Shown here in pieces: positions 1-54,822 of a stretch of 64,000 bases of DNA. Location: assembly GCA_000004695.1 (NCBI GenBank), contig CM000153.2, positions 5,344,001-5,408,000 on the forward strand, in the 5' to 3' direction. Each line of letters opens with the position of its first letter. The stretch's first letter is position 1. Under the pieces are notes generated by a model, which was not told the origin of the DNA, searched no databases, and saw only the letters and a program-made list of their open reading frames with translations. Made by a program: the position numbers and the translations under genes. The DNA comes from Dictyostelium discoideum (Eukaryota).

Positions 1-1932
1 TCATCGACAATGTTATTTAAATCATCATTTATTACATTTAGAAATTGTGAAATTTCATTCAATATTCAAAATAGTGGTGATTTTTTAACAGTGATCGATA
101 GTGGTGTCACTAAATTTATATCAACAAATATAACAAATAATCGAATTGAAATCAATGGTGGTTATTTAGTTAGAGTTAGTGATGGACCGATGGTTAGTTT
201 TATTAATAGTTTAATTAGTTCAACCAATTCAATAACGGGTTTAATTGGTTTATTTATCAATTCAATGGTATCATTTGATAGTAGTATTTTTATAAATAAT
301 TCAAATTCTTATCTTGGTGGTGTAACATATTTCGATAGAAGTTCAAGATATTATGAATTAACAAGATGTTCATTTCAATTGAATTCAGCTTCAGTTGGTG
401 GTGTATTTTATACTGAAAATTTTATTTTTAATTTTTATCAAATTTTAAAAAATAATAAATTTTATCCATATAATAATTTCACTTTAAATAAAGCAATCTA
501 TGGTGATTTTGTTGCATCATCACCAACTCTAATTAAAATTGAATTACCAGATTTAAATTCAAGTTTAACAAAACCAACAATTAAAATTCAAGATGATTAT
601 TTAAATTTAGTTTCTGATAAAATTTATTTTGCAAATATTATAATTACAACTGTTTATTTTAATAATTCAAATTCAAATGAAGAAGCACAACAACAACAAC
701 AACAACAAAATAAAACAAAATATGAACAAATTTTAATTAAAGGTGGTTTAGGTACATTTAATTATAATTTTAATGCACCAATAAGTGTTAAATATTTTGT
801 AATTAATGTAACGATTATAGATGATGTAAATGAATTTCTTTCAATTGAAATTATAAAAAATAAAACTATTTGTAAAGATTATCAATTATATAATAGTGAA
901 AATGGTGAATGTACAACATGTCAAGTTGGATTTTATAATTATCAAGGTTCATGTATAGCTTGTAATGAAAATTTAATTTGTATGGAAGGTGATATTCATT
1001 CAATTGATGGTTATTATTTAATTAATAAAATTAATTTTAATGATAATCAAACAAATGAAATTCATTATCAAGATAGTAGTGATGATGATAGTAGTGGTGA
1101 TAATGGTATTGGAAAATTAAAAGTTTATGAATGTCCAATTGGAATTTGTTTTGAAAATAATAAATGTCCAAATGATTTATATTATGGTATACTATGTTCA
1201 AGATGTATTAATGATACAGCGATTTGGGATAGAGATATTGATAGTTCATCAAATGGAAAGAATTTAATTAGATGTTGTAAAGAATTTAAACCAATTTTAT
1301 TAATACCTTTTATAATATTTTTAATTTTATTTGGACTTTTCATTTCATTATTTAAATATAATTTAACAACATTAATAATACCAATGATTTTAATGATTCA
1401 AATTAATTCAATAATTTTCATTTCATATCCTGCTATTTACATATTACCATTATCAAGATTCTCATTCGACTTTTTTAATGATATTTGTAGTTTTAGAATG
1501 GAATATATTTGGAAATCATTTTTATCAATGATATCAATGGTATTTGTATTTTTAATTGGTTGTTCAAATTTATCATTTATAACATTAACTACAATACCAT
1601 TTTTAAAATCATTTTCACAAAAAAGTAATATCATTAAAAATAATATCGAATTTCATTATAAATATTATTATGATAATTTTAATTTTAAAAGAAATTTAAA
1701 ATCAAAATTTAATATAATCATTTTATTATTTCAACCATTTTTATTCAATTTAATTTCAATGATAATTTCAAAAGAAATTAATTCAATTAATTATTTATTA
1801 ATTGATATTTCAATTTTATTTAAAAAATCATCATCACATTACTTTTTTTTTTGTTTTTATTTAATTTTATTAATTTTAATATTTTTAATTTTAATAATTT
1901 TAATTTTAAATTGTTTTTTTTATAAAATAATT

Positions 1933-1986
<54 letters not shown>

Positions 1987-2451
1987 TATAAGAAAAAATT
2001 TTATTTTATTTTTAAAATTATTTCAATTGGTTCAACTTATTTATTATTTAATAATAATAAAAGATCAATTGAATATAAAGATCAATTTAAATGGTGGGAT
2101 TTTATTATAATTTTAAAATCAATAATAATTATAATAATTTCAATTTCAATGTTATATAATTATAAATATTATCTTTTAGTATTATCAACTATTCAATTCA
2201 TTTTCTCTTATTTACAATTTGTAATTTATCCACAAAAGAAATCTTTTAATTATAAATTAAATAATTTATTAAATTTATTACAATTAATAATTTTAGTAAC
2301 TGTAGATTCAAATATTATTATTAAAAATTTATCACTTTATAATATTGGTTTATTTATCACAATCTTTACTTCATTTTCTTTAATTTTTTCTATAATTTAT
2401 TATAATTATTTTTTAAAAATTAATAAAAATAATAAAAATAAAAAAAATTAA
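1..2451 (+). CDS. 5'-partial gene for a large membrane protein: N-terminal parallel beta-helix / Chlamydia-Pmp-type repeat region, Cys-rich module, C-terminal multi-pass (~7-9 TM) domain. Stop at 2449-2451.
   Basis: The 813-aa ORF stays open to base 1, so the gene continues upstream of the window. It has a GGVFY motif, NS-x-x-N beta-helix-like repeats, and a CxxC-rich block (CTTCQVGFYNYQGSCIACNENLIC…CPIGICFENNKCP…CSRCINDT). The C-terminal ~350 aa is strongly hydrophobic and periodic. The protein is clearly paralogous to the downstream gene at 2878-8299. Confidence 0.6.
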
Positions 2452-2714
2452 TATTAAATAATTATTATTATTATTATTCATATAAAAAGTTTTTTTTTTT
2501 ATTTTTTTTTTTTTTTTTTCGTAGTTGTATTCTTTTTTTAATATAATAAATTTATTTTGATCAGAAAAAATTTATTAAATTAAAAAAAATTTTTTTTTTT
2601 TTTTTTTTAAAAAAAATAATACAATTTCGGAAAAAAAAAATGATTGGTTTGTGATGTGTGGAAATGAAAACCCAAATAATCAAGTGACGTGTTCAAAAAA
2701 AATTAAATGTTACT

Positions 2715-2746
<32 letters not shown>

Positions 2747-2877
2747 AAATTAAAAAAAAAAAAAAAAAAAAAATATCTTGTTGACCTTTTTTTCATTTTT
2801 TTTTTTTTTTTTTCGTAACGTCTTTTCACAAAAAAAAAAAATAAAAAAAATAAAAAAAAAAAAAATAATAATAAACG

Positions 2878-3673
2878 TTGACAACAATAACAACAATACA
2901 TGAAAGGAATAATACTGATTTAAAATTTCCAAAAATAAATTATATAATAAATTANNNNNNNNNNNNNNNNNNNNNNNNNNNNNNNNNNNNNNNNNNNNNN
3001 NNNNNNNNNNNNNNNNNNNNNNNNNNNNNNNNNNNNNNNNNNNNNNNNNNNNNNAATAATAATAATAATATAATAACAAAAGATATAATAGATTATAATT
3101 TTAATAATCATATTAAAAATGATAATAGTAAATTTAATAATATTTTAAAAAAATACCAAATTAATAATAATACTTTTGAAAATGGTGCAATATTAGATTT
3201 AAATGATATTGGTAGTAATATTTTATATAAAAATGAAGATAAAGAAAAAGATGAAGAAGAATATTATTATTATAAAGAAAATCAAAATATATATAATAAA
3301 ATTGGTAATGATTTAAATTATAATTTTCAATATAATGAATATATTGAAAATAATGATTTCGAAAACAATCAACCAATTGATAATTTTAATGTAGAAGGTA
3401 GTGGTGGTGGTAAACAAATAATTTCTTATTATTTATCAAAGAATGGAAATGATACAACAGGAAATGGTACAATTAATTCACCATATCTTAGTATATGTAA
3501 AATTGTAAACATAATAAATAGTTATAATGGAATTAATATATTTAAAGTTTTTATTGAAATTGGAAATTATGAAGCAGTTGAAGGTTGTACATTAAATATT
3601 ATAAATAATTCAGTAGTTAGCTTAATTTACTTTACAAAAAATGAAATAATAAATAATAATAATAATAATAATT

Positions 3674-3719
<46 letters not shown>

Positions 3720-6197
3720 TAATTATAATAATAATAAATCAAATCTTATAATACCAAATATAATAAATTTAAATATAAATTTAAAAAATTCAACATTTTT
3801 TTTAAATTATATTAATTTACATTATTTTAATGAAAAAGTTATAAATATAACATATGGTATAAATACATTTCAATTTTTAATTGAAAATAGTAATTTACAT
3901 TGTGTAAATCCAAAATTACCATATTGTAATATTTTATTTAATAAATTAAATCAAAGTTTAATCATTAATGATGATAATGAAGCAATGATTTTAATAAAAA
4001 ATTCAAATATTATTAAATTTGATTTTTATTTTAATATTATTGAAATGAATGTAGAGAATTCAAATTTATATTTTACAAGTTTATATTCATTAATTAGTCA
4101 AAATTTAACATTTTCAAAATCATATTTTAATAATACATTAATTTATTTGGTTGAATATCAAGCAATAAATGTTTCAATTGATCATTGTAAAATGATTTAT
4201 GATTTTTCAAATAATATTCAAGTGTTTTTAATGGGAACAGGGAATATATTAACAATTTCAAATTCACAAATGGAAAGTACAGGTGAATTCTTTTCATCCT
4301 ATATCACTTGTAAGAATGCAAAAGTTCAATTGATGAATGTACAATTTATAAATTGGTATTTACTTAGACCATTTATAAATCTTAGTTTAAATTCAACATT
4401 AATTATGGAGAATGTTTTTGCAAGGAAAATGTATATACCAGCATTTATTGAAATTGGTAATAGTGAACTTATAATTGATACATTGGAAATTAGTGGTAAT
4501 AAATTGGTACTAATAATTATTGAAGGTCCATCAGTGATTTCAATTAGTTATTTGACATTAAAATATCAATCAGAACAAGGTTCACCAATTATGATGAATT
4601 TTCCAGGTGGTGGATTTGGAATGAAAACTATAATCAATATCACTTCTTCAAATTTTATAAATATCGATGGTTTCACATTAAAAGATGCTCAATTAACTTT
4701 ATTTAACGTTTCAATGCATAGTGATAGTATAAATAGTTTATTTGCATTATCATCAAGTCAACTATTTTCAAGTAAAAGTACATTTAGTAGTAGTTTAATC
4801 GTTGGTAGTTATTTTTTATTTTCATTAGATTTCACATCACTAGTTGATTTAGATCGTTGTATTCTTACAAATTCATCATCACTTTTTCAAGCAAATTCAT
4901 TTTCAAATATTACAATTACAAATTCATTAATTGATTCAGTATTCTCAAGATCGGTTGCAATTGAAATTCAAGGCGGTTCATCATTTACAATGATAAATTC
5001 AATTATTAATAAAACTTATGTTGTTAGTCAAAGTTTTATATATAGTTCTTCAAATTCTGATATCATAATTCATAAATGTAATTTCTTACAATTTGTAATG
5101 GGTTTAAAACCATTGGGTAATTTTTTAAATAGTAATGTTTTCATTGATCATTTGTTATTATATCAATCATTTTTTCAAAATCAAATTTTCGTTGCAACTT
5201 CATCAATTATGTATATTAGTGATACAAAGTTATTTAATAATTCAATATATGGTAGTGAAATGTTTTTATTAAATAATCAATCTTATCTATTAATGAATAA
5301 TTCTTTAATTTATGGTAATTCAATTTCAGTTTGTTTTTCAAGTTCTCATTCATTGGCAAATATTCATAATGTTACATTTCAAAATAATTCAGGTATTTTC
5401 TTATATAGTGTTGATAGTAAAATTAGTTTATCATTATTAGAATTTTCAAAGAATCCAATTTCATCATTATATTATTTATTTTATTTTACAAATTCATCTG
5501 CAACCTTTCAACAATTAACAATCGATTCAAATTATTTTATGGGTAGTGTAATTGAAGCTCATTTCTCTGAAATTTTATTTACAAATTTAATATTTTCATT
5601 AAATCAAAATGTTGATAATTTATTAAAGGATAGAGAATCACCATCATTAGTTTTCACTCATTCAAATGTTAAAATTATAAATTCAACAATTAATTCAAAT
5701 TCACAATGGTCTTTAGATTTAATTTGGTCACAAAAATCAATTTTAATAATTAAAAATAGTTTATTCAATTCAAATTCAATACCATATAATGGTTATTTAA
5801 TTAGATTAGAAACTTGTCATCTTTCTTTAGATCATTGTTTAATATTTGGTACTCAATCAATTGAAGGTACAATTGGTTCATTTAATTCAATAATTAATGC
5901 TACAAATAATTTATTCTTACAAAATAATGCTCTTGAAATGGGTGGTTGTTTTTTTCTTTCAAATTCTCAAATTTTATCATTTTCAAATAATTCATTTTTA
6001 AATAATACTGCTTCAATTGGTGCTGCAATCTTTACAAATGGCACTTTAATTAATAATACTTTAATTATTAAATCAAATAAATTTTTAAATAATAATGCAT
6101 ATGAATATGGTGATAATATTGGTTCATGTAAGTTTTTTATTATTATTATTATTATTTTTTATTTTTCATTTTTAATTTAAAATATATATTAATCTAT

Positions 6198-6248
<51 letters not shown>

Positions 6249-8299
6249 AATAGATCCAACTTGGATTAGTGTTGAATATCCAGAAGATTTTGATTCAACA
6301 ATAAATTATATTAGATTATATGATAATTATTCAAATTTAGTTGCAGATAATTTTTATACAGCAAATATAATAATTTATGATTCAAGAGTTAATGAAAATA
6401 TAAGTTTAACAACATTTATTAGAGGTGGTAGTGGTGATTTTAATTATTCATTTAATGTATTTTCAATTTATGATTTTCAAATTTCAATTAATATTATTGC
6501 AGATGGATTTAATATTAATTATCTTAAATATAAAAGTCCACCAAAATGTTTAAATTTTCAAACTAGTACATTATCTGATGGTTGTATATTTTGTCCAATT
6601 AATCAAGCTGCAACACCTGAAAAAGGTGAATGTACAAAATGTGATACAAATAAATTGGTTTGTTTAAATAATGATGTTCATACATTACAAGATTATTTTA
6701 TGATTAATAATGATGTTTCAAAAGTTTATCAATGTCCATTTGGTTTATGTTCTGGTCAAAATAATTGTAATAGTAATTTATTTTTATTATCAAGTTTACA
6801 AAGTCCATTATGTTCAAGGTGTTTAAATGATTATAATAATGAAAATGATGATGAAAATCAATTTAAATATAATAATAATGAAAATAGTGGTAGTAGTGGT
6901 AATAGTAATAATAATGAAAATAGTAATAGTAATAGTGATAGTAATAGTAATAGTAATAGTAATAGTAATAGTAATAGTAATAGTAATAGTAATAGTAATA
7001 GTAATAGTAATAGTAATAGTAATAGTAATAGTAATGAAAATAATTATAATGGTGGTGATGATGATGATGATGAAAAAAATATTAATAATTATAAACCATC
7101 AAAATCAAAGAATGGATTATATTGTTGTAATAAATTTCAACCATTATTATTAATACCATTTATTTTTTGGATTTTATTTTTTGGATTATTTTTATCATTA
7201 TTTAAAAATGTTATAACTGGTACAATGATTGGTCAAATTATATTATTTTTACAATTAAATTCAATTGTATTTTATCCATTACCAAATATTTATGGTTTAC
7301 AATTATTTAGAATGTCAATTGATTATTTTGATCGATATTGTTTATTTAAATTAGATTATATTGAAAAGATTTCAATTTCATTAATCTCAATATTTTTAAT
7401 TTATTTAATTGGTATTTCAGATGTAACATCAAGATTAATTTTATCAATTTTAAAAAGATCTTTAAAATTAAAGAAACTGATTCCATTGGTAATTGAAAAA
7501 CAACTTCGAAAATTTGAATATTATAAAATGAATAGAATTAATACAAGATTAAAATCAAATTGGAATATTTATTTAATGTTAATTCAACCATTATTTCATT
7601 GTTTAATATCATTAATTGTACCAAAATCAATTGGTTCAACAACTTATTTATCAATTGATTTAACAATACTATTCATTTCAACACCAATTCAAATTGTTTT
7701 CTTTTTTTCAAGTATTGTAATTTTATTTTTATTAGGTATAATCATTCCATTGATTATATTTGTNNNNNNNNNNNNNNNNNNNNNNNNNNNNNNNNNNNNN
7801 NNNNNNNNNNNNNNNNNNNNNNNNNNNNNNNNNNNNNNNNNNNNNNNNNNNNNNNNNNNNNNNAAATCATTATAGAAAAGAATTTAGATGGTGGGATTTA
7901 ATATTTGTTTTTAAAACTATACTATTCACTTCACTATCTGTAACTTTATTGTATAATCCACCCGTTTATTTTTCAGCTTTAGTAATTTGTCAAATTGTTT
8001 ACTCTTATTCACAATTTGCATTCTCACCACAAAGAAAAGATCATATGTATAGAGTTGAAAATTTATTAAATCTATTTCAACTTTCAATATTAATCGTAAT
8101 TAATACTTCAATAATTAGAAATTTATCTTTTAATTTAATTGGTATTTTATTTACTATTGTAATTTTCTCTTGTTCTTTAATAACAATAATTTATAAATTA
8201 TTCTTTTATAAAAAATTAAAAACTATTAAAAATCATAGACTTTTAAATTTAATTATAAATGTTGATGATAATAAAAAAAAAACAAATAAAAATAAATAA
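2878..8299 (+). CDS. Tandem paralog of the upstream gene: Pmp-repeat (GGAI / FxxN) beta-helix ectodomain, Cys-rich module and multi-pass TM domain. Predicted exons 2878-6127 and 6254-8299, interrupted by two 100-N gaps; the true start codon is uncertain because of the gap at 2955-3054.
   Basis: An 1100-aa ORF carries Pmp-repeat motifs (IGAAIFTNGT, MGGCFFLSNS, NNSFLNNTA, SNKFLNNNA). A GTAAGT donor lies at 6128 and a poly-A…TAG acceptor at 6252-6253, with an in-frame junction. The downstream frame (PTWISVEYPEDF…CPFGLCSGQNNC…CSRCLNDY…LYCCNKFQPLLLIPFIFWILFFGLF) is colinear with the C-terminal half of gene 1-2451. The ORF after the second gap runs to a stop at 8297-8299. Confidence 0.55.
2955..3054. 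other. Assembly gap (100 N)
   Basis: Run of exactly 100 N characters. Confidence 0.99.
6935..7038 (+). repeat. (AGTAAT)n hexanucleotide microsatellite encoding an (SN)n tract within the CDS
   Basis: Perfect agtaat repeats, translated in frame as SNSNSN…. Confidence 0.9.
7764..7863. other. Assembly gap (100 N) inside gene
   Basis: Run of exactly 100 N characters. Confidence 0.99.
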
Positions 8300-8634
8300 A
8301 TAAATAAAAAAAAAAAAAACAATTATTTAAAAACAAATAAAATAAAATAAAATAAAATAAATATTTAAATAATAAAAAAAAAAAATTTATTTAAACTTTA
8401 TAATTAATTTTTAAAAAATAAACTATTAATAATGACAATGATTGTCACTCCATTGGCAATTTGATAAAACACAACTTAATTTACCTTTAATTGATTCACA
8501 AAACTCTTTAAAAGAAAAAAAAAAAAAAAAGTTAATAAAAGTTTTATATTAGTATTTAATTATTATAAAAAAAAAGGAAAAATAATTCTTTTAAAATTCT
8601 TACTCTTTAAACTTTCTTGTTCACCTTCAACTTT

Positions 8635-8822
8635 ATTACATGATTCATTTTCCCATTGACAACCATATTGTGAACTTTCATTACAAATTGATTCGGAAAG
8701 ATAAGAACAAACACTATTACCTTGGTATTCTTCAGTTACTTCAACTGCATTTTCAATTGCATCAAGAGCTGATTCTCTTCTAATTGTAACACAAGCAAAT
8801 TTATTATGACCTAAAGCTTTCC

Positions 8823-8859
<37 letters not shown>

Positions 8860-9073
8860 TTTTTAAATAATAAATAAAAAAGAAAAATTAGTATTGATGA
8901 TGATGGTGGTGATGACAAAGATAGAATGAAGATTTAATAGAATTAAATATTTACAAGCATGGTGGAGAATTTAATGCACAATAAAATGCATTTCTATTTG
9001 ATGAACAGCTTGCAGCATTTGTAATACCAACAAATAATAATACAGCAACTAATAAAGATACAATGAATTTCAT
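8635..9073 (-). CDS. Small secreted Cys-rich protein (~102 aa): signal peptide MKFIVSLLVAVLLFVGITNA, then CSY…SICNESSQYGCQWENES. Exons 9073-8955 and 8824-8635.
   Basis: The ATG on the minus strand lies at 9073-9071, followed by a hydrophobic signal peptide. A GTAAAT donor lies at 8954 and the acceptor AG at 8826-8825 after a poly-A tract, restoring the frame. The Cys spacing resembles a PSI-like CxxC…C-W motif. The stop codon TAA read at 8637-8635 sits at a line junction in my reading; see findings for a possible third exon. Confidence 0.4.
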
Positions 9074-9823
9074 TTTTTATGAATAACTTTGATTTAATAA
9101 TTCTACAATAAAAAAAAAAAAAAAAAAAAAACAGCAAAGAAAACAAAAAAAAAAAAAAGTAAAAAAAAAATAAAAAAAATAAAATTTTGGTTTTATCCCA
9201 CCAGGCTATGAGATATTTTTTGAAACCCACAAAAAAAAATTTTTAAAAATTGATCAATTTTTTTTCGGCTTCAAATAATTTTATTTTAAAAATAAAAATT
9301 TCGTGGTATTCAAAATTGAATTGAAATTTGATTATTTAAAAATTTTATGTAATGCTTAATCTTTTATTTTATTTTTATTTTCTTAATCTTTTATTTTATT
9401 TTTATTTTCTTTTATTTTTTTTTTTTCTTTTTTTTTATTTTTTTTTTAATTATTATTTTTTTCTTTTAAAACCTTTATCAACGAGCAAAATTGTCAATTC
9501 TAAATTAAATAATAATAATAAAAATGACAGAAGCAACAATGATTGCACTTAAACAAATAATGCAAATTTAAAATTAAAAAAAAAAAAAAATTTAGTTTTA
9601 AAAAAATAATGGTAATAATTTAGTAAAAACAACAATTAATTTTTCAAATCTTTGTTTTATTGTTTCTTATTGAGTAACATTTAATGATGATTGTGGTTTA
9701 TAATTTACAAAAAGTTTTTTTTTTTCTTTATTTTAATCTTATCATTATTTTTGAAATAAAAGTTTTATTATATTATATAATTGTTGTTTTTACTAAATTT
9801 TCTTTTTATATATAAATATTTGT

Positions 9824-10760
9824 TTATTTCTTTTCATCTTTTGAATTATCTTTATCTCTAAACTCTGGTTTTAATTCATATAAATGATGGTAAGGTCCTC
9901 TTTTGTTTAAGATACAAACTTTCTCTAAAATTGTCTTTAAATGATTCTTTGGTTGTTCTGTAAATGATTCCAATGTTTTAAGATCTAAATGTTTCTCTGC
10001 TCTAAATGCACTGAAGATAAGATCAAGAACTTCATCTTCTGGTAATTTTTCTTTTTTGTCTGTAGATTTCTTTTTCTTTATAGTTTTGATATAAAATGAG
10101 AATTAATAAAAATTTTTATTTATTTTTTTTAAAAAAAATAAAAAATAAAAAATAAAAAATAAAAATAAATAAATAAATAATACTTACTTGAGTAATACCA
10201 ACAGTACTAACTTTAACTTTATTTGCATCGAAAAGTGTTGGAGTGAATAGTTCGGATTCATCAATGACTTGAGTCATTCTAGTTTTAGTATTATATTTAG
10301 TATGTCTTGATTTCATTAGATCTCTATATTGTGGTGATTCAACATCAATCTTTATATCACATCTTAACCCTATATTACCTTCCAATGCTAATGCACCATC
10401 TTTATCCTCTGAAAATATTTTTAATGGTTGATTATCTAATGTATTTGCTGTTGTAATTAATTGAAATTCTTGTCCAACATCTGGTCCATATGATAATGAT
10501 ATCTATATAAAATAAATAAATAAATAATTAAATAAATAAAACTTTTATATATTTATATCTATACTATATATATATAAAGAAATAAAGAAATAAATTCTTA
10601 CATTGTCACCACCTTTTATATGAATTTGACCAATTTCACCTTGACCAATCTTTTGCCAACTTTCTGATAAAAACTTTGGTACTTTAATTAACCAAACTTG
10701 ATTATCTGCATTATCTGTATTAACTTCACCTACTAAAGCATCATTCTTTTCTTCGCTCAT
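9824..10760 (-). CDS. gtf2f2: General transcription factor IIF subunit 2 (TFIIF beta / RAP30). Three exons: 10760-10602, 10502-10188, 10075-9824; ~241 aa.
   Basis: The N-terminus NQVWLIKVPKFLSESWQKIGQGEIGQIHI matches RAP30 GVWLVKVPKYLSQQWAKASGRGEVGKLRI. The C-terminal winged helix LDLIFSAFRAEKHLDLKTLESFTEQPKNHLKTILEKVCILNKRGPYHHLYELKPEFR matches RAP30 LDMLFSAFEKHQYYNLKDLVDITKQP…KNTWELKPEYR. The two introns have GTAAGA and GTAAGT donors and poly-AT…AG acceptors, and the exon lengths (159, 315, 252 nt) keep the frame. Confidence 0.85.
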
Positions 10761-11377
10761 TATTTTCTATTTTAATATATATTTAAGTGTTTTTGTGGTG
10801 AAATTAAAATGAAAATAAAAATAAAAAAAAAAAATAAAAAAAAAAAATGAAAAAGTTGGGAATAAAAAAAAAATAAAAAAAATAAAAAATAAAAAAAAAA
10901 AATAAAAAAAATAAATTAAAAAAAAAAAATAATTACATTCAATTAAATTAGATTATTAAAAAGAAGATTATTTTATTTTTTTTTTATTTCAATTTTTTTA
11001 TTTATTTTTTTATATATTTTTTTTTTTTTTATTTTTGTTTTTTTTTAAAAAAAAAATAATTAATAATTTTTAAAAATATGGAGTTTATTATTTAATTTTT
11101 TTTTTTATACATAGATAATTAATTTAATAAAACCAATTAAATTTTATTTTTTATTTTTTTATAAATATATATAATACAATTAAATTAATTATATTTTTTT
11201 TTCTTTTTTTTTTTTTAATTAAATTAATTATTTATTTAATTAAAAAAAGTGGAAAGATTTTTTTTTTTTTTTTTGTTGGAAATTCGATTTCCAACAATTG
11301 TTGAAATTTTAAAATAAATATATACATATATATATAAATTGACATGAACCTTTTTGGAAAGAAAAAAAACTAATCAA

Positions 11378-13627
<2,250 letters not shown>

Positions 13628-13663
13628 TTTATTATTATTTAAATTTTAAAAAAATTTAAATTG

Positions 13664-13705
<42 letters not shown>

Positions 13706-14265
13706 TATTTAAATATTTTTTATTTATATAATTTACAAATGTAAAGATAGAATGAAGATAATTATTTTTATTTACAAATTTTACAATAATTTTAATTTAT
13801 AAAAAAAAAAAAAACAATAAAAAAAAATAAAAAAAAAGATATGTAATGTTGTTTGTGAAAAAAAAAAAGTTTAAAATAGATTTTTTGATTGAAAAAAAAA
13901 AAAAATTAATAAAAAATTTAATTAAATCTTTTGATATTGTAAATTTAACTTTAATTGGTGGAGTTTTTTTATTTTTATTTTTTTTTTTTTTTTTTATTTT
14001 TTTGAAATTTTATGAAAAAAAAAAAATAAAAAAAATAAAAAAAATAAAAAAAAATAAAGATATATATAATTGGTTGAAATTATGTGTTGAATTGTTTTTA
14101 TTTACAGATATATTGTAATTTTACAGTAATTAATTTTTTTTTTTTTTTTTTTTTTAATGATGAGAAAAAAGGAATTTAATTTTTTTATTTAATTTTTTTA
14201 TTTAATTTTATTTATTTTTTTATTTTTTTTTTTTTTTTTTGTTATTTTATTTTTAAAATTATTTT

Positions 14266-14301
<36 letters not shown>

Positions 14302-15560
14302 CAAAAATTTGATCACCCCCAATTTTTTTTTTTACCTTTATTATCAAAAAAAATATTGTTACTCATTCAATGTGGTTTCAAATATAAACACATTGTTTTG
14401 TGGTGGTGTGGGGTTATTAATATAATTTTTTAAAAAAAAAAAAAAATAATAAAAAAAAATAAAAATATTGGCCTCAACCAAATCACAAATAGAATTGAGT
14501 GTTTGTTTTCAAATTATAGTGTGAACCTTTTATGAAAATAAATTAAAATTGTTTTTATCACCACTAAATCCTTGAATCAAAAAAAAAAAGATTAAGTTAT
14601 TTTTAGCATATCAAAAAAAAAAAAAAAAAAAAAAAATTATAAAAATAAATAAATTAAAAAAAATAAAAATAATAAAAAAAGATATAAAAAGAAAAAAAAA
14701 AAAATTAAAATTATTAATATGGAATTACCATTTTTGTTGCAAAGCTTTATTTTGAAAATATTTTAAAAAAAAAAAAAAAAAAAATTATATGATGATATTT
14801 TTAGTAAGATTAATTGAGATTTTTTTTTTTTTAAAAAATATCTATATTTTTTTTTTAAAAGATCCAATGAATTGAAAATTTTAAATATTTTTTTTATTAA
14901 AAAAAAAAGATATTAAAGTGGATTTTTAAATTATCAAATAACTAAATAGGGTAAAATCTTTAAAAAATAATCTCAATTCAGTGTTTTTTTTTTTTTTTTT
15001 TTGCCATTTAAATTAAAATAACAATTGACTAGATTTTTATACCAATTATTTAATTTTAAATCTATCCAATTGATTTTTTTTTTAATTAAGGCTAAAAATT
15101 TAAAATTATCCATTTTTTTTTTTTTTTTTTTTTCCTTTTTAAATATAGGCTTTAAAAAATTGTTAAAATAATAAATAAAAAAAATAAAAAAAATAAAAAT
15201 AAAAAAAATAAAAAAAATAAAAAATTTGATATACAATTAAATAACAAAAAACTTGTTTTTTTGAACTTAATATCTATTTTTATATAAAAAAATAAATAAA
15301 TAATTATTAAAAAGAAAATGTGGTTTTGAAAAAAAAAAAAAAATAAAAAAAAAAAATAGTCCAAATCAGGTGGTTTGGATAATTTTATTTTTTTTATTTT
15401 TTTTTTATTTTTTTTTTATTTTTTTAATAAAAAAATAAGAAAATGATTTTTTTTTATTTTTTTTTATTTTTTATTTTTTTTTTATACATAAAATTTTTTA
15501 TATTTTTTTTCTCAACAAATAATAAAAAACAAATAAAAAAAAAAATTAAAAATTAAAGAA

Positions 15561-16251
15561 ATGATATTATTATATAATAATCATTTTGATGAAAACGAGA
15601 TAGAAAAAGGAATGAAAGAAATCAATAATAATAATAATATTAATATTAATAATAATATAAATAATAATAATAAATCACAAAATATAAAAAATGAAATGTA
15701 TACAATTAAAAAAAAAGAAATTATTGATATTAAATTAATAAATGATGATAATAATAACAATAATAATAATAATAGTAATTGTAGTTGTAGTAAAGAATCA
15801 TCAACTTCTTCAACATCAATTATATCACTGTCATCATTTTTTTCAAGTATAAATAATATTTATGATGAAGATGAAATTGAAAGAGCAATTGGTTTAAAAA
15901 AAAGTAATAAAATTTATAATAATACAATTATTTATAGATCAACAAGTCAACATAAAAATTTAATACCATTATATGAACATTATTATAAAGTTTCAAAATC
16001 AACTAAATTAATTTTTACAACAGATCAATTCGACCCAAAAGTTGATATAGATAATGATAATTTAATTGTATTTGCCAAAGGATTAGAACCTTTAATTCAA
16101 GAGAATTTTGAATTTTATTGTTCAGAATTAATTCATCTCTTTGAAATTTTAAAAAAACATAATGCAAATAATATGAAAATTTTATTATTATCATTAAATT
16201 CACAATATAATTCATTTTTAAATTCATCATTAATTGGTTTAATTAAATATT

Positions 16252-16316
<65 letters not shown>

Positions 16317-16712
16317 CAATTCATTTCAATTGATTTCGATAATAATTCATATTATAATAATAATATTTTCAATAATATTGAATTAATTATGACGAATTTT
16401 ATTAATTATAATAATATAAATAATAATAATATAAATAATAATAATAATATAATTCAAATTATAAATAATAAAATATTTAAAGAATATAATCAAATGATTG
16501 ATGAAAATTTTAATAATAAAAATAAAATCGATAAGGAAGATGATAAATTTGGTAAGACAGTATTAATTACGGGTCAAGAAGGTTTATCATTACAATTTTT
16601 AAAATGGATTATAAATAAAAGAAATACCAATATAAAAGATATAATTGTTGTATCAAAATCATCAATTGATTGGGAAATTGAAAAATTAATTGAATATTGC
16701 ACCACCAATAAT

Positions 16713-16786
<74 letters not shown>

Positions 16787-16928
16787 CGATAATCAAATTA
16801 CAATTCATTTCAAAAATTTAGATATTTCAAAAATGTATTCAATTAAAAATTTATTAAATCAAATTTATAAAGATAATAATATATCACCCGTTGAATCTAT
16901 ATTTCATTTCTCTAATAATAACAATATA

Positions 16929-17012
<84 letters not shown>

Positions 17013-17255
17013 TTTAAGAAATTTCATGATTGTAGTTCAAATGGTTCATTAAATCTACATCAAATATCAATTGAAATGAAATGGAATTTAAAAACATTTT
17101 TATTAAATGGTATGAATATTAGCAACAACAATAATAATAATCTTGGTGAAATTAGTTCAAATGAAGTTTTAGAATCATTAAATAATTACAGAAAATCAAT
17201 TGGATTATCATCAAGTTTAATAAAATGGTCACCATCAAATATTTATGATAGTAAC

Positions 17256-17289
<34 letters not shown>

Positions 17290-17351
17290 TTGAAATTATT
17301 GAATTTTTAATTAATAATAAAGAAAATTATTCAAATATTAGTATTTTGTAA
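15561..17351 (+). CDS. Stand-alone ORF (596 aa) resembling the ketoreductase (psi-KR + KR) region of type I polyketide synthases. The NADPH-binding motif is degenerate, and there are several poly-Asn inserts.
   Basis: TVLITGQEGLSLQFLKWIINKR…IIVVSKSS aligns with the PKS KR pattern TYLITGGLGGLG…KWL…VLLSRSG. Downstream, IFHFS, SSNGSLNLHQISIEM (compare GAWNLHQLT) and SSSLIKWSP (compare SINWGPW) follow in the expected order. No KS/AT/DH-like coding sequence lies in the ~1.4 kb AT-rich upstream region. Confidence 0.45.
16705..16792 (+). repeat. (CAA)n / (AAC)n microsatellite, in-frame poly-Asn/Gln codons
   Basis: About 29 tandem aac/caa units. Confidence 0.9.
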
Positions 17352-17474
17352 ATAATAAAAATAAAATAAATTTTTGTAAATTAAAATATTCTTTTTATTT
17401 ATTTAATAAAATAATAATAATAAATTGATTATAAATTTTGTTTTTTTTTTTTTTAATTTTGTTTTTTTTTTTAT

Positions 17475-17509
17475 TTATTTTCTTTTACGAAGATTATTAT
17501 TATTATTTA

Positions 17510-17591
<82 letters not shown>

Positions 17592-18514
17592 TGATTTTGA
17601 AATAAGTAAAGACATTAAACTTGAAAAAGAATCACTCTTATTATTTAATAATTCAATTGCATAATTATAAGATTCATCTTTTGAAACACCAAATGCTTTT
17701 GAAACTTCTGTCGAACCTGTTTTTATAATGGTTGAATAAAGTGGAAAATCATTTTTTGGTGGGATTGTTCTTTTTTAAAAAAAATAAAAAAAAAAAAAAA
17801 AAATTATAATAATAATAATATTAATATTGTTTTTTTTTTTTTTTTTTTTTTTTCTCATGTATATTTTTAAAAATTTAATAATTACTTTATAATTGGTGGT
17901 TCTAATTTAAAATTTGAAAAATTTTTAATTAAAATTGATTCAGGTTTATTTAATATAAAAGATTCTAAAGATTGTTGGGGTTGTCTTAAGATTTGAGTAT
18001 GAATGAAATTACGAACAGTTTTAAAATCAGTTTCTAAATAAAGTGCACCAATGAATTTAATTAAACAACGATATGAATAATGACTAAAATAAATTGATTT
18101 ATAAAATGAATTTGAATTAATTTGAAAACGAATAAATTCTGATAAACCAATATCTTTACAACGTTCTCTTAAAAAGTAAGAACTTTTAATTGATTCTCTA
18201 AACTCTTCAAATATTGATTGATCATTAAATGAAAATTCTGAATCTGAAATTGAATGTCTATAACATAATTCTCCAAAAAATCTTAATTTATTTTGTTCTG
18301 CTTCATTTTGTAAACTTGGACAATGTGTTAAACTATCAATTATAATTTTTGGAATTTCAAAGTCATCATTGCCATTTTTTGAAAATTTAATATTTAAATC
18401 TTTTAATAATTTTAATAAACTTGGTTTAAATTCTGTTTCCATATCTTCATTAACTTTTTTACCATATAATTCAGAGGTGGTGGTGGTTGTTGTTGTTATT
18501 GTTTTATCAATTTG

Positions 18515-18547
<33 letters not shown>

Positions 18548-18787
18548 TCCATTCGTTATTGTTATAACTTTTGAATCATTTATATCAATACCTTCAACAT
18601 CTAAATATAATGGTTCTAAATCATCAAATTGTTCGGTTGTTTTTATTATATTTTGAGTTTTTAAACGAATAAATCTTTTATTATTATTATTAAAATTATT
18701 AAAATTATAAAATATATTTTTATTTTCAATAAATAAATTTTTCCTAATATTACAATTATTTGTAATTTTAATAATATTTTTAATCAT
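17475..18787 (-). CDS. RNase III domain + dsRBD protein, probably mitochondrial ribosomal protein mL44-like with a degenerate catalytic site. Exons 18787-17886 and 17769-17475.
   Basis: NKLRFFGELCYRHSISD resembles the ERLEFLGDA signature, and IKFIGALYLETDFKTVRNFI resembles the second RNase III helix. The N-terminus is K/R-rich and presequence-like. The listed ORF stops at 17882-17884, but a GTAATT donor starts at 17885. An acceptor AG at 17771-17770 gives a 116-nt intron. The frame then continues for 99 codons (STIIKTGSTEVSKAFGVSKDESYNYAIELL, dsRBD-like C-terminal helix) to a TAA at 17477-17475, and exon lengths close the frame exactly. Confidence 0.55.
17514..17590. repeat. (ATT)n microsatellite; coding poly-Asn on the minus strand
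   Basis: About 25 perfect att units. Confidence 0.9.
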
Positions 18788-19023
18788 TTTATTTTTTTTT
18801 TTTTTTTATTTTTTTTTTTTTTTTAATTAAATATAACTTTTTTTTAAAAAATCTGTAAAAAAAAAAAATATAAAAAAAAAAAAAAAGGCAAAAAAAAAAA
18901 AAAATATAAAAAATAAAAAAAAAAATTATGAAAAAACGTAAAAAAACGAATCTCTGTTTTTTTTATTTTTTTTTTTTTTTTTATTTTAAATTAACTATAG
19001 TTTTTTTTTTAAATTTATTTTAT

Positions 19024-19750
19024 TTATTTTAATTTTTTATTATTATTTTGATTTTGATTTTGGTTTTGATTTTTTTTTGAAAAAATTATTAATTTAATAA
19101 ATAAAAATATATTTATAAAGAAACCTAATGTTAATACAAAGATTCCAAAAAATATGAAAACATATTTAAGTAAACAAAAGTTTGAACCAAAATAAATAAA
19201 AGTATCAATTGATGATGATGGATAATTTTTTAAAATTTGATAATGACAATAATTTTCAAGTTCATCAAAAATTAAACCTAAAATTGGTATTAAATTATAA
19301 AGGTCACTAAATGATTTTTGATTTTCATAACCCAAGATTGGGTATGTTTTTGATAACATTGAAATTACAATAATTGCTAAAAGAATTGGAAATATAATAT
19401 CATAATAACTTGTATACATTGTCATATATAAATCTCTACCTTTTGGTCCTAATAATTCTAATGTTTGAATTGCTTGAGTCTTTGTATAACCTATTAAATA
19501 TGAATCTAATAACTTTTTTTTTTTTTTTTTTTTTTTTTTATTATTTAATATTTTTAATAATAATAATAAGAAAATATAAATAATTTTTTAAAAATAAAAA
19601 ACACTCAATACTTACATTAATACTTAATTGTGACATAATTTTTGTTGACATTAAATTGAAAATAAAAAATGCCAAAACTAATGTAGGAAATAATACATAT
19701 GGTGAACCTGTTAAATTTCTTAACTTGTTTGATAAACTTCTTAAAAACAT
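19024..19750 (-). CDS. Small four-pass membrane protein (~207 aa). Exons 19750-19616 and 19512-19024.
   Basis: Exon 1 (MFLRSLSNKLRNLTGSPYVLFPTLVLAFFIFNLMSTKIMSQLSIN) ends at a GTAAGT donor at 19615. The first AG after the poly-A tract (19514-19513) restores the frame (LLDSYLIGYTKTQAIQTLELLGPKGRDLYMTMYTSYYDIIFPILLAIIVISML…). There are four hydrophobic segments and a C-terminal (NQ)n tail. Confidence 0.5.
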
Positions 19751-20279
19751 TTTATTTTTACTTTTATTATTATTATATATAAATATATAAAACCATACAA
19801 TTAAAAAAAGAGTGAAAAAATAAAAAAACTAAAAAAAAATGAATTTGGTTTTTTTTTTTTTTTTTTTTTTTATAAAAATAAAAAAATTTTCCATTTTTTT
19901 TTTTTTTTAATTATTTTTTATCATTATTTGATTATTAAATAAATCAATAATAAATCAAATTAATAATAAAAACTTTATATTATGTCTCATTTAGAAATTA
20001 TAATTTCCTTTTTTTTTTATAAAATAATTAAAAACAAATATTAATTTTTTTTTTGGAAATATTATTAAACAACCAAAATATTCAATTTAGATAATAATAA
20101 AAAAAACATGATTAATTAAAAAATTAAAATTTTAGATTTTATAAAAATAAATTATTTTATTTAATATTTTTTTTAAAATATAAAAAAAAAACCCCACAAA
20201 GCTAATTAAATAATAAAAAAATACTAATGTTAGAAACTAATTTAGAAATATTATTTAATATTTAATTTATAAATATTTA

Positions 20280-21261
20280 AATGGTTATTATCAGACAAAA
20301 ATTTTGTACACGTAATGTTTCTATCCGCAAATAAAACTCAGTCCGCTCGTCAAGGGTTCACATCATTAAATAACCAAATAAATCAATACTAATTAAAAAT
20401 TATAAAAAAGAAATTAACATACCAATTAAAATGCAGTTATATAGCAAGACTTTAAAACAAAGAGCTAGTTATTTTTTTATTTGTACAGGTTCTAAATTTT
20501 AAATTAAAAAATAATATTAATAACTGATTTTTTTTTTAAAAAAAAAAAAAAATAGAAAATTATTAAAGGACCAATTGATAAATCAGACGTGTTAAAAAAG
20601 ATGTCCTCATTTTACAATCAGACATATGCTTGTATGAAAATCATCATATCTATCAATTGGTTCGAATAATTGTAATTTAATTCTTACCTTTATTTCATGA
20701 GGGGAAAAAAAAGTTTTTAAAAACTAATTTTTTTTTTTGGAGGCATCTGCATACCAAGAATTAAACTGAACTATTAAACAAGGCAATTTTCTAGAAATAA
20801 ATAATAAAAATAATATGTTAATAATTTAATCTTTTTTTTTTTATAAAAAAAAATGATTTATTTAAATAATTATTTTTTTTGAGATATTTTGTCAGATGTT
20901 ATAGAAGAAGTAATGTTTTTATTTCATCATTCTCTTTAAGATGTCCCTAACAGGTTTTCATCATATAAATAATCCCAAAAATAAATTATTCTTTAAAAAA
21001 AAAAAAATATATTTTAAAACTTACTCTTAACCTTAAGACATTTTATTGGTGCACCACAACAAATTGATTTGAATGAATTTTATTTTTTTTTTTTTTTCTT
21101 TTATAAAAAAAAGTGGAACGAAAAAAAAATTTGAAAAAAAAATTTGAAAAAAAAAAGTAAAAAAAAAGAAAAGTAAAAAAAAATAACGTTAAATTCGAAA
21201 AAAAAAAAAAACGTAGTTCTTAAAAATAAAATTAAGCCAAAATTTCCTCATTTTTTTTGTC

Positions 21262-44099: not shown

Positions 44100-47000
44100 A
44101 TGATAAATAATAAAATTTTAATAGCAATATTAATTTTAATATTATTAATTAAATTATCAAATTCATTATGTATACCAATATTAGGTGGTATATGTATTTT
44201 GGAAGGACCATTATTACTTGATGTTAGTCAATTATTTTCAAGTCTTGATTTAAAAAGTAATCCATTATCAATTCTTGGATCAATAATAACGATAACTGGT
44301 AAATTAACATGTGATTCAACTATATCATTATTAGGTGGTACATTAGTATTACAAGGTTTAATTGAAATTAAAGCTGGATGTGTATTTAAAATTGGCAATG
44401 AAACTGTAATTGAAACTTCATCATCACTATTGTCAATGCCATTGTTATCAGTTGAATTTTTAAATTCAAATGGTAATTCATCATTAACATTTAAAAGTTC
44501 AAATAGTAATTCAGCATTGGATTTACAATTCTTTTCATTAAATGGTACAGAAACACCAAAATTTATATTTAATTCAAATAATGTTTCAATTTCAACATCG
44601 TTTTTACATTTACCAATTTCAAGAATTGGTAAAGCTATAGTTAATATGGGTAATAAAATTGGTAGTAAATTAGAGATTAGTAATGATTTTAAATTTGATA
44701 GTTTATTAATACAAAATTCAATCTCACAATTATTATTACCCGATCAAATCGATATTAGTACATTAACATTAACAAATGTTAACAATGTATTAGGTTTATC
44801 AAATTTATCACCAACAATTACAAATTTATATACTCAATTAAATTTAATACTTGATTCAACAAATATATCATTTAATAAAAAAGTTTTTTTAAAGTCAATA
44901 AATTCAATTTCAAGTAATTTAAATTTTTTAAATTCAAATATTATAATTGGTGTTAATAATGGTAATATAATAAATTCAATGATTCAATTTAATGGTAATG
45001 AAAATAATCAAATTTTAGATTTATTTGGTAATTTAAATTTAGTTTCAACAATTTCACCAATTATAAATTCAATTCAACAATTAGTTACAAGTTCAACCAA
45101 TAATAATAATAATGGTATAATTAGATTAAATAATGGTTTAATTAATTCAAATTTAATAATTGGTAATGATTCAAGTTTAATTTATAAATTAAATTGTCAA
45201 TTAATCGGTGGTACAATTGGTGGTACAATTAATTCAATTGGTGGTTTATTTTTACCAAATCAATTAAATTTATTAGAAAAATTAAATTTAAATTTAAAAA
45301 GTTTATTAATTGATTCTGGTCAAATTTTATTAAATAATTCAATTTTAAATATTAAAGATTCAATTGGTTTCAATAACAATGTAATTGGTACAATGAATTT
45401 AACAAATAGTTTATTAGAATTAGGTGGTAACATTTTTAATAATACTTCAAATTCATTTAAAGATTTATTATTAATAAATGTTAAATTATCAGCAAATAAT
45501 TTAATTTTAAATATTGCAAATAATATTATTCTACCAAATCGTATTTCATTAGGTATTGGTTCAACTTTACACTTTGTAAATGGTATTGAAAATGATTTAA
45601 AATTTCAAACAACTTTAGATTTAAATTTATTAAATTCAATTTTAAATACAAATTTTGTTTTTGTAATTTCAACATCATCTTTAATATTTTGTAATGGTCA
45701 ATCACCACCAACTATGATACAATTACATGGTAGTTCAACTTCAACCTATCAATTTATGTGTGATAATAATATGATTGTAATGAGATTAACCAATTGTTTT
45801 GGTGGTTATATTTGTCCTTCAAATGATCAATGTGTATCAAATGAATCACAATGTTCATCAATTGATGATCAATCGGCAGTATTACCAGCTTGTAATGTAA
45901 ATGAAATTCGTTGTTTATCAGGTTGTCATTCAAATATTGATTATTGTAATAATACTCAATGTATAAGTGAGGGTGGTACAATTGAATGTTTATCACCAAC
46001 CACTGCCAAAAGTTTAAAATATAATGGTTGTCCATTTAATTATTTTCAATGTGGTGATGGTTCTTGTCATTTAAATAAATTGGATTGTTGTGTTGTTGGT
46101 ATAAATTGTACTCAATCTTTATTGGTTTCAACATTTGTTAAACCAGAATTATCGTACTCTCCAATTCATACTTTAAAAGATATGAAAGTTCCAATCATTT
46201 CAAAATCGAAATCAACTGGAATTTTAGATATTTATGGTTACGTTTCAATGCCAAGTGGTTTCTTAACTATAAATTCACTAAGTAAATTAAAAATAACCTA
46301 TAAAGATGATTCTTATTTAGATTCAGTAAATGGTGATGAAATTTGGGGTATTGATTCAAATATATCTCAATATAGACAGTCTGCAATTAGTATGATATTC
46401 GATATTTCAATCGATACAATTCCAAATCCAATTTTTAATCATAATATAACATTTGAATTAAAAGTTAATAATCTTCAACTTTTAAATTTATCAAATTATT
46501 GTCTTTACTATATTAATACTACTCAAAATAAATGGAATTGTGAAACTAGTTCAACTATTTCAATATCTCCAAGAAATACTTTGTTAGTTACAACTCCTCA
46601 TTTCACTGATTTTGGTGTTTTACTTAATAATTATAAACCTCAAACAACTCGTCCACCTGCTGGTGGTGGTACTTGGACAAATCCAACATTTACAACAACT
46701 GGTACTACAACTGGTACTACTACTGCAACTACAACTGCAACTACTACTGCAACTACAACTGCAACTACAACTGCAACAGGTAGTTCAAATCCTACTACAA
46801 CAACAACTACTAATCAACAAACAACAACAACAACAATTTCTCAAACCACCAATGGAGGTGATGGATCATCAATTGATACAACAACTGGGGGATCATCAAA
46901 TCCTACTACTACTGGTACTACAACTGCAACAACTTCAGGTACTACAACTGCTACAACTACTGCTACAACTACTGCAACAACAACTGCAACAACAACTGCA

Positions 47001-54782: not shown

Positions 54783-54785
<3 letters not shown>
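53049..54785 (-). CDS. Secreted / GPI-anchored-type cell-surface protein (~579 aa) with IPT/TIG-like beta-sandwich repeats, a Ser-rich linker, a C-terminal EGF-like domain and a hydrophobic C-terminus
   Basis: The listed ORF starts in a poly-A tract; the biologically plausible start is the ATG at 54785-54783 (MKLLLLLFLIINSIILSKC signal peptide). It has repeated ~90-aa units with conserved C…C pairs, and an EGF-like C-terminus QGCSNSGTCNPVTGLCQCLPTKTGKICDQ. A hydrophobic tail LLSTSSLFLLLLIFITLFY follows with no cytoplasmic residues. Confidence 0.65.

Positions 54786-54822
<37 letters not shown>

Follow-up and report, generated by a model that had tools for sequence, protein, structure and literature searches.

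We analyzed a 64,000-nucleotide stretch of the Dictyostelium discoideum genome (assembly GCA_000004695.1, contig CM000153.2, positions 5,344,001 to 5,408,000 of the forward strand), referred to as the window herein. The window is extremely AT-rich, with a GC content of 12-34 % per 2 kb, and carries poly-Asn and poly-Gln tracts and short GT...AG introns, as expected of nuclear DNA from a dictyostelid. Positions 1-8299 hold two open reading frame (ORF) systems, both on the forward strand, at 1-2451 and about 2878-8299, which we call gene 1 and gene 2. From comparison of their predicted products, both genes belong to an undescribed, mainly dictyostelid family that is already in the databases as hypothetical proteins. 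Each couples a beta-helix-containing ectodomain to a nine-helix membrane domain, for which kinship with the fungal Pkd2/Flc TRP-like family (PF06011) is the best lead. The features of the two genes were assigned as follows, where TM stands for transmembrane helix and AF2 for AlphaFold2.

1-2451, forward strand: gene 1, a C-terminal fragment of 816 codons; frame open to base 1, stop codon at 2449-2451
1-480, forward strand: end of the gene 1 beta-helix, the last roughly six rungs, from the three-strand rung pattern of the AF2 model and a profile match
about 289-420, forward strand: PMP-like rungs of gene 1, FINNSNSYLGGVTY and FQLNSASVGGVFY
508-870, forward strand: predicted beta-sandwich (Ig-like) of gene 1, broken by a poly-Gln loop, from AF2 strands and the alignment with gene 2
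871-1290, forward strand: Cys-rich stalk of gene 1, with ephrin-receptor-like or TNFR-like hairpins (C291-C327), a low-complexity acidic linker and a juxtamembrane knot
1291-2406, forward strand: nine-helix membrane domain of gene 1, TM1-TM9, in which loop 5 is a cytosolic poly-Asn loop
2407-2448, forward strand: Lys-rich cytosolic tail of gene 1
2955-3054: run of 100 N inside gene 2 at its 5' end, with (AAT)n poly-Asn repeats directly after it
3055-6127, forward strand: exon 1 of gene 2, with a low-complexity N-terminal stretch, the helix-opening motif and a presumed beta-helix of roughly 900 residues
3460-3486, forward strand: gene 2 motif NGNDxxGNGTINSPY, which opens the helix in all homologs
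5914-5946, 5995-6027 and 6082-6114, forward strand: PMP-like rungs of gene 2
6128-6253, forward strand: intron of gene 2 (GTAAGT ... poly-T ... ATAG)
6254-7137, forward strand: first part of exon 2 of gene 2, a beta-sandwich followed by the Cys-rich stalk at 6538-7137
7138-8299, forward strand: membrane domain of gene 2, with TM1-TM5 at 7138-7763, the gap at 7764-7863, the RWWD motif and TM6-TM9 at 7865-8296, and the stop codon at 8297-8299
7764-7863: second run of 100 N inside gene 2, in the variable cytosolic loop 5, where the gene 1 loop has 17 Asn

Gene 1, as it stands in the window, covers just the C-terminal portion of a larger gene, judging from its place in the family profile: its residue 5 falls on column 774 of 1501, which leaves about 770 profile columns upstream of the window. 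For gene 2, we found no in-frame ATG upstream of the gap at 2955-3054 nor in the several hundred codons past it, and the start codon and signal peptide are presumably hidden in that gap. A run of exactly 100 N is the conventional mark of an assembly gap of unspecified length. Across the second such run, the frame of gene 2 switches from 1 to 2. The spliced junction of gene 2, which joins YGDNIGS to YPTWISVEYP, was found by BLASTP to align gap-free with gene 1 YGDFVASSPTLIKIELP.

The invisible start codon, the two gaps and the frame change over the second gap could be taken to mean that the two genes are decaying copies or assembly artefacts around the gaps. The same reading could draw on the absence of any counterpart with at least 50 % identity to gene 1 or gene 2 from a collection of 15 billion proteins in which neighbouring genes do have one. 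We nevertheless consider it very unlikely, since the frames are uninterrupted (816 codons in gene 1; 1023, 503 and 144 codons in gene 2), the intron is canonical with a junction that aligns exactly with gene 1, and every family-invariant Cys and motif residue is retained. Furthermore, each gap borders on or falls within a poly-Asn (AAT)n tract, a kind of sequence that typically interrupts assemblies, and for this reason the gaps look like repeat-induced breaks in the assembly rather than lesions.

As a preliminary description of this DNA had proposed, genes 1 and 2 are tandem paralogs. They lie on the same strand, and BLASTP aligned their products with 30 % identity over 654 residues (E value 5e-55) and with 39 % identity over the last 125 residues (E value 4e-22). 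To find homologs, we used a filter-free phmmer search of 1.84 billion (1.84e9) representative proteins, which gave only 21 matches; 19 of these have either the membrane domain or the entire architecture in common with genes 1 and 2. The traced homologs come from D. discoideum strains, D. purpureum, D. firmibasis, D. dimigraforme and Tieghemostelium lacteum. The exception is one EukProt entry, which is less AT-biased than the others. The homologs go by the names 'hypothetical protein', 'transmembrane protein' and 'right handed beta helix domain-containing protein', and the full-length ones, of about 1400-1900 residues, start with a hydrophobic, signal-peptide-like N terminus (judged by eye) that is followed by a conserved NGxxxNGTIxxPY motif. 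The closest of them reach a best identity of 38-44 % to genes 1 and 2, therefore the exact products of the two genes are not in the representative collection. For instance, D. discoideum AX4 DDB_G0272102 (UniProt Q55A59, 'Transmembrane protein'), D. purpureum DICPUDRAFT_157377 and T. lacteum DLAC_10210 and DLAC_10212 have the same architecture throughout at 30-40 % identity. These are separate paralogs without a described function, and neither gene 1 nor gene 2 has its ortholog among them.

The T. lacteum members form a near-tandem pair of their own. On LODT01000042.1 (L009), they occupy 10001-14553 and 16812-21095 on the same strand with one opposite-strand gene between them, and correspond to DLAC_10210 and a 1427-residue gene that is very likely DLAC_10212. 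Local duplication of the family therefore recurs in a distant dictyostelid. Separately, we noted that the gene model of the D. discoideum paralog P0024 (KAM9947526.1, 1820 residues) runs about 260 residues past the usual family C terminus. This Cys/His-rich extension is unrelated to the family and is probably a mis-fused neighbouring or mobile-element ORF. Our literature searches on the family, on DDB_G0272102, on DUF7630 and on Dictyostelium together with Pmp turned up nothing of relevance. A beta-helix, a Cys-rich stalk and a multi-pass domain in one protein had been called unusual, and for PMP-like proteins this stands. The combination is kept in 19 homologs, and we found no paper that describes it.

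The choice of search method mattered for these AT-biased, low-complexity proteins. Word-indexed homology searches, which were run with the gene 1 fragment, with the masked membrane-domain alignment and with the membrane domain of the family entry P0019, gave 8000 junk candidates and missed relatives that HMMER finds at an E value of 1e-72. Negatives of word-indexed searches on such genomes are hence not trustworthy, and the only yield of ours was P0026, a protein considered below. Several other families (FILTED and SLATT of NCBIfam; PFF1_TM, Zip, DUF2615 and Comm of Pfam) came up below threshold on hydrophobic or low-complexity stretches and were rejected.

Hydropathy analysis of both genes gave a strongly hydrophobic C-terminal region. 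Modeling of this region by AF2 with an 18-row alignment yielded a compact bundle of nine membrane helices, with a mean predicted local distance difference test (pLDDT) of 84.7 and a predicted template-modeling score (pTM) of 0.87. In the model, the N terminus lies outside and the C terminus inside, and the loops fit the positive-inside rule with the ectodomain outside (21 Lys and Arg residues inside, 6 outside). The multi-pass character of the C-terminal region, which the preliminary description had put at about 7-9 helices, was borne out, with a count of nine and not seven. Further features of the domain include a helical cytosolic insert between TM3 and TM4, a conserved beta-hairpin (YLSIDFS) after TM4 and a variable cytosolic loop after TM5. 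Conserved polar residues lie within the helices (Q467, N469, S470, K505, N583, S586, D700, Q732, N758 and T787), D602 of the extracellular hairpin is invariant, and a Y-x3-FKWWD motif is found just before TM6. DSSP analysis of the model gave short strands just ahead of TM1 and, in the TM2-TM3 loop, at residues 121-122, and, as read from the DSSP string only, the stalk may pack on this loop by short strand pairing. No part of the family is better conserved than the membrane domain (identities of 30-44 %), and the conservation of its residues argues against a mere anchor.

The membrane domain is unlike any solved structure. Foldseek with the membrane-domain model gave no E value below 3 against the PDB, and searches of PDB sequences, whether by gene 1 or by the family profile, brought up nothing of significance. 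Likewise, Pfam and structure searches of the family gave no matches to REJ, GAIN, PLAT, PKD-channel or seven-transmembrane (7TM) domains. This leaves little room for a 7TM or G-protein-coupled-receptor (GPCR) type of adhesion receptor, in which a beta-helix ectodomain would bind ligand and a G-protein-coupled bundle of seven helices would carry the signal. Similarity to 7TM receptors had been suggested for these genes; given nine helices and the results above, we regard such a receptor as extremely improbable. Polycystin-1, fibrocystin (PKHD1, with its PbH1 beta-helix repeats) and adhesion GPCRs share with genes 1 and 2 the concept of a huge adhesive or mechanically exposed ectodomain on a multi-pass signaling or channel module. 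In the absence of any kinship in sequence or fold, they are analogues in function only.

Kinship of a different kind emerged when the masked family profile was searched against 5.8e9 proteins. The single match was P0026, a metagenomic, protist-like protein (E value 1.6e-4), which hhalign also aligned to the family profile with a probability of 79 % (E value 1.6e-5). The family hidden Markov model (HMM) scored 38.8 bits on P0026 compared with a maximum of 15.4 bits in 3000 local shuffles, therefore hydrophobic composition does not explain the match. The alignment covers TM4-TM9, including the YLS[IV]D[FL]S hairpin and a Y-x3-F-W-[FW]-W-[DE]...R motif. Over overlapping residues, P0026 itself exceeds the cut-off of PF06011 (45 bits versus 28.5), the family of the fungal Pkd2/Flc TRP-like proteins. 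P0026 also starts with an LCxxCxxG[WY]...CxxC-TM1 arrangement, as in the family. Taken together, these results support, indirectly and at the level of sequence, a relationship between the membrane domain of genes 1 and 2 and that of PF06011-bearing proteins.

The surroundings of P0026 were examined on its metagenome scaffold (L007, JING18-1...scaffold_39817), which carries ORFs at 2-1483 and 1524-3749. The ORF directly upstream of P0026 encodes four Ephrin_rec_like repeats, and both ORFs probably belong to a single eukaryotic gene that is interrupted by an intron or a frame error. The arrangement points to a wider superfamily in protists in which a Cys-rich ectodomain is joined to a TRP-like multi-pass domain. 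Two further observations were made by eye. TM2 of P0026 has FLQI[ST], to be compared with FLQINS in the family, a resemblance to which no statistics are attached, and the segment after the Ephrin_rec_like repeats looks galactose-binding or discoidin-like.

What a relative of PF06011 would do can be gauged from the fungal proteins. In S. pombe Pkd2, a signal peptide and an extracellular ML-like domain precede a central membrane 'TRP-like' domain, which is followed by a cytosolic tail (PMC6727746), and the Pkd2/Flc family has been implicated in Ca2+ handling or permeation, turgor, osmotic or stretch responses and cell-wall integrity (PMC6727746, PMC8618638). The layout of Pkd2, Flc1-3 and TrpR, with a secreted extracellular domain at the N terminus, a multi-pass domain and a C-terminal tail in the cytosol, recurs in genes 1 and 2. 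In place of the ML-like domain, however, they have a beta-helix of about 900-1000 residues, a beta-sandwich and a Cys-rich stalk; they are without the long C-terminal coiled coil, and their family is mainly dictyostelid. We therefore propose that the proteins of genes 1 and 2 couple an adhesin-like ectodomain with a channel or transporter domain of the Pkd2/Flc type, a proposal whose chances we put at about even.

Several points weigh against this proposal. The channel activity of the fungal PF06011 family is itself debated, with flavin carrier and Ca2+ channel as the competing roles. None of the individual members, nor the family consensus, matched PF06011 directly at E values up to 10, and the link runs via a single intermediate, P0026, and only the C-terminal half of the domain. 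Pkd2/Flc proteins usually carry the PF14558/ML-like TRP_N lipid-binding domain, and genes 1 and 2 have no TRP_N/ML match. Lastly, because the 15-billion-protein collection holds no counterpart of at least 50 % identity while other genes of the window were found exactly, genes 1 and 2 may be unannotated, poorly expressed or strain-variable.

The membrane domain could instead be a new, unrelated solute carrier, or an enzyme or scaffold that handles lipids or glycans, in which case the likeness to the PF06011-bearing protein would say nothing about ion conduction. Consistent with this, no solved fold matches, the members of PF06011 in S. cerevisiae were first described as flavin carriers (PMC8618638), and conserved Lys, Asp, Gln and Asn residues in helices are equally typical of carriers. 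There is no positive pointer to any substrate, though, and a qualitative look at the helix order revealed no evident internal repeat or inverted symmetry. On balance, we think a carrier or enzyme of this kind unlikely.

Turning to the ectodomain, the AF2 model of gene 1 residues 1-140 consists of regular three-stranded rungs with a pLDDT of about 90. For gene 2, the first roughly 900 residues would likewise form a beta-helix, going by the annotation of homologs and sub-threshold Beta_helix matches, and hydrophobicity autocorrelation of its ectodomain gave no clear rung period. Foldseek with the whole gene 1 model returned weak tailspike, pentapeptide-repeat, pectate-lyase and Ig-like matches, none with an E value of 1e-3 or below.

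The rungs of both genes had been described as chlamydial Pmp repeats, for which HMM searches were named as the test. With the whole proteins, neither Chlam_PMP of Pfam (PF02415, gathering threshold of 20.6 bits; E values up to 1) nor its NCBIfam counterpart POMP_repeat (TIGR01376) gave a match. An excised segment of gene 1 scored 15.6 bits (E value 0.019) with Chlam_PMP, under the cut-off, and the excised segment of gene 2 scored nothing; sub-threshold matches were found for 3 of 18 family members. The exact motif GGA[ILV] does not occur in either ectodomain, and FxxN is only mildly enriched. Of the longer motif FxxNxAxxxG[GA], gene 1 has a single copy and gene 2 has two, with one partial copy in addition. 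The copies in gene 2 lie at residues 953, 980 and 1009, a spacing of 27 and 29 residues, and their count was not reached in any of 500 shuffles. These degenerate rungs sit at the membrane-proximal end of the helix, in its last two to three rungs, where the family consensus reads S.F..N....GG...F..N.A...GGV.Y; over its first roughly 900 residues, the rod of gene 2 lacks the PMP signature.

Profile comparison gave a clearer signal. Over gene 1 residues 5-182, hhalign aligned the family profile with a probability of 90.5 % (E value 1.3e-6) to P0020, a bacterial protein above the Pfam cut-offs for both Beta_helix (84.7 bits) and Chlam_PMP (38.6 bits). P0020 and P0021 were also matched by phmmer, with E values for the whole library of 4e-4 and 9e-4, respectively. 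In addition, the family profile aligned with a probability of 65 % (E value 5.9e-5) to the PMP region of a third gene of the window, at 47671-49263. We conclude from this supportive but indirect evidence that the membrane-proximal rungs are probably degenerate relatives of PMP rungs, with PMP-type ancestry. Thus, the repeat claim stands as profile-level kinship of the last rungs and fails as membership of the Pfam and NCBIfam families, whose thresholds are not reached.

Chlamydial Pmp proteins (PF02415) and the Pmp-like surface proteins of Trichomonas (PMC6701047) have in common with genes 1 and 2 a right-handed beta-helix with rungs of the form F-x-x-N-x-A ... G-G-[AV]-[ILVF], spaced by 27-29 residues. 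As for those proteins, a surface or adhesive role is plausible for genes 1 and 2. Unlike the Chlamydia Pmps, they are without a C-terminal autotransporter beta-barrel (no autotransporter Pfam match) and have the all-helical bundle of nine TMs instead. The Trichomonas Pmp-like proteins are of the single-pass anchor type, and in genes 1 and 2 the nine-TM domain stands where that anchor would be.

Between the rod and the membrane lie the beta-sandwich and the stalk. The sandwich was modeled as strands in gene 1 residues 171-287 (pLDDT of about 70-90), and Foldseek gave weak Ig-like or sandwich matches for it, none with an E value of 1e-3 or below. In the stalk, the model has Cys-rich hairpins around residues 291-340 of gene 1 and is of low confidence at 343-425. 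The juxtamembrane knot, which is poorly modeled, has the pattern CPxGxC...C...LCxxC...CC. The stalk of gene 2 carries a long Asn/Ser low-complexity insert ahead of the CC motif. A CxxC-rich module had been claimed for both genes, and indeed CxxC pairs are present (CTTC, CIAC and CSRC in gene 1) and eight Cys residues are conserved across the family. Seven of these are in the juxtamembrane knot of the stalk, where they are 94-100 % conserved, and the eighth is C496 of the TM2-TM3 loop. Ephrin_rec_like (PF07699) scored 13.7 bits on the stalk (E value 0.056; threshold of 23.1 bits). DUF7630 reached an E value of 0.39 on the gene 1 stalk and did best on the C-terminal region of P0019 (E value 0.00037, 21 bits versus 27). 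The resemblance of the stalk to Ephrin_rec_like/GCC2_GCC3 repeats and to DUF7630 is suggestive only. The ectodomain as a whole is rich in NxS/T sites and disulfide cysteines, and, together with the signal-like N termini of homologs (by eye), this makes a surface location of the proteins plausible.

An ectodomain of this make raises the possibility that the proteins are pure adhesins or components of the surface coat, with the multi-pass region as an elaborate anchor that neither transports nor signals. Over two thirds of the protein is ectodomain, adhesion is the typical role of PMP-type and other beta-helix proteins (PMC6701047, PMC10715098), and the window also encodes single-pass PMP, mucin-like and TIG/EGF surface proteins. 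For a simple anchor, on the other hand, the intrahelical polar residues, the invariant loop residues and the Y-x3-FKWWD motif would be needless, and the membrane domain is the best-conserved part of the protein. This domain is also shared with a protein of quite different ectodomain, P0026, which points to an autonomous functional module. We accordingly rate a purely adhesive function as a minor prospect.

Under the proposal of an adhesin-like ectodomain on a Pkd2/Flc-type domain, the rod and stalk would form an extracellular binding or tension element that is coupled to a channel or transporter module. Going by the homologs, the order along the protein is a signal-like N terminus, the beta-helix rod, the beta-sandwich, the disulfide-rich stalk and the nine-helix membrane domain. 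The rod and stalk might bind, or be pulled by, the substratum, prey or another cell, and the conserved C496 of the TM2-TM3 loop could form a disulfide link to the stalk. Force or binding would then reach the membrane domain, which, lined by polar residues that are conserved, would act as a channel or transporter and not as a passive anchor. A bolder version, which we consider rather improbable, is that these proteins constitute a hitherto unrecognized class of eukaryotic surface machines, namely tether-gated ion channels that respond to contact or tension. In such a class, a beta-helix rod and a disulfide-locked stalk on a Pkd2/Flc-related nine-helix domain would let amoebae sense substratum, prey and kin, and sister protist families would have swapped the ectodomain, as P0026 did with ephrin-receptor-like repeats.

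The other genes of the window that we assigned are listed here.

8429-9076, reverse strand: small multi-exon gene just downstream of gene 2, with a signal peptide and Cys-rich segments (MKFIVSLLVAVLLFVGITNAASC...); its product is probably a small secreted protein
9830-10760, reverse strand: three-exon gene with exon junctions placed by eye; we take its spliced product to resemble the small subunit of TFIIF (RAP30-like)
11378-13627, reverse strand: ORF very rich in poly-Asn, without a Pfam match
15561-17351, forward strand: ORF with a KR domain and poly-Asn tracts
17882-18787, reverse strand: RNase III-like ORF
44100-47276, forward strand: mucin-like type I glycoprotein of 1058 residues, with a signal peptide, a Leu/Ile/Asn-rich repetitive N-terminal half and a Cys-rich region
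47671-49263, forward strand: third PMP gene, a single-pass type I protein of 530 residues with a signal peptide, beta-helix, one TM helix and a short basic tail
53049-54863, reverse strand: ORF with IPT/TIG domains and a weak laminin-EGF match, of the Tgr/tiger surface-protein type

The product of the gene at 44100-47276 also contains a long, Thr-rich, mucin-like stalk of the TTTA(T) type, one TM helix and a basic tail, and belongs to no Pfam family. The gene at 47671-49263 had been named as a third Pmp-repeat gene, and here the assignment holds: it has two clear PMP rungs, FLNNKARLGGAIST and FQGNSAQYFGGSIY, exceeds the Chlam_PMP cut-off with 29 bits versus 20.6 and, as a single-pass type I protein, is like the single-pass Pmp-like proteins of Trichomonas. 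In a pairwise BLASTP comparison, its similarity to gene 1 was not significant (E value 1.9). The idea of a surface gene cluster that includes genes 1 and 2 is weak and found no support, as this third gene lies 40 kb away, with low-complexity genes and housekeeping genes, among them V-ATPase A, PheRS alpha and a GTPase, in between. In D. purpureum, we also noted a TIG gene (L008, 2690-5946) about 4 kb upstream of the family member P0001.

With respect to records of the window elsewhere, the third PMP gene was matched exactly in GCA_054883475.1 and in Logan assemblies. Two window genes other than genes 1 and 2 were matched exactly in that assembly (chromosome CM142510.1) and in Logan read assemblies, with flanks that are 98.7-99.9 % identical, which makes the window another strain or assembly of the same Dictyostelium species. 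By extrapolation, the locus of genes 1 and 2 would fall at roughly 158-170 kb of CM142510.1. The ORFs at 11378-13627, 15561-17351 and 17882-18787 had no exact product in the assembly collection, unlike genes further along the window, and strain differences in repeat length or unrecognized introns are likely to account for this.

Taken together, the architecture of genes 1 and 2 is real and unusual, the Pmp label is loosely right and the Pkd2/Flc kinship is the best lead to function. The annotation can be corrected in that the proteins qualify neither as true Pmp proteins nor as 7TM receptors, and two apparently intact members of the family seem to be absent from public protein sets. If the membrane domain does belong to the Pkd2/Flc TRP-like superfamily, a structurally unsolved and little understood family would reach beyond fungi to Amoebozoa and other protists, and its membrane module would pair with interchangeable ectodomains (ML-like, ephrin-receptor-like and PMP-like beta-helix). 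Dictyostelium lends itself to genetics and is a classic model in work on adhesion, phagocytosis, mechanosensing and Ca2+ signaling, and a family of seven or more paralogs in which a rod-like ectodomain sits on a putative channel would offer a direct test of 'tethered' gating models.

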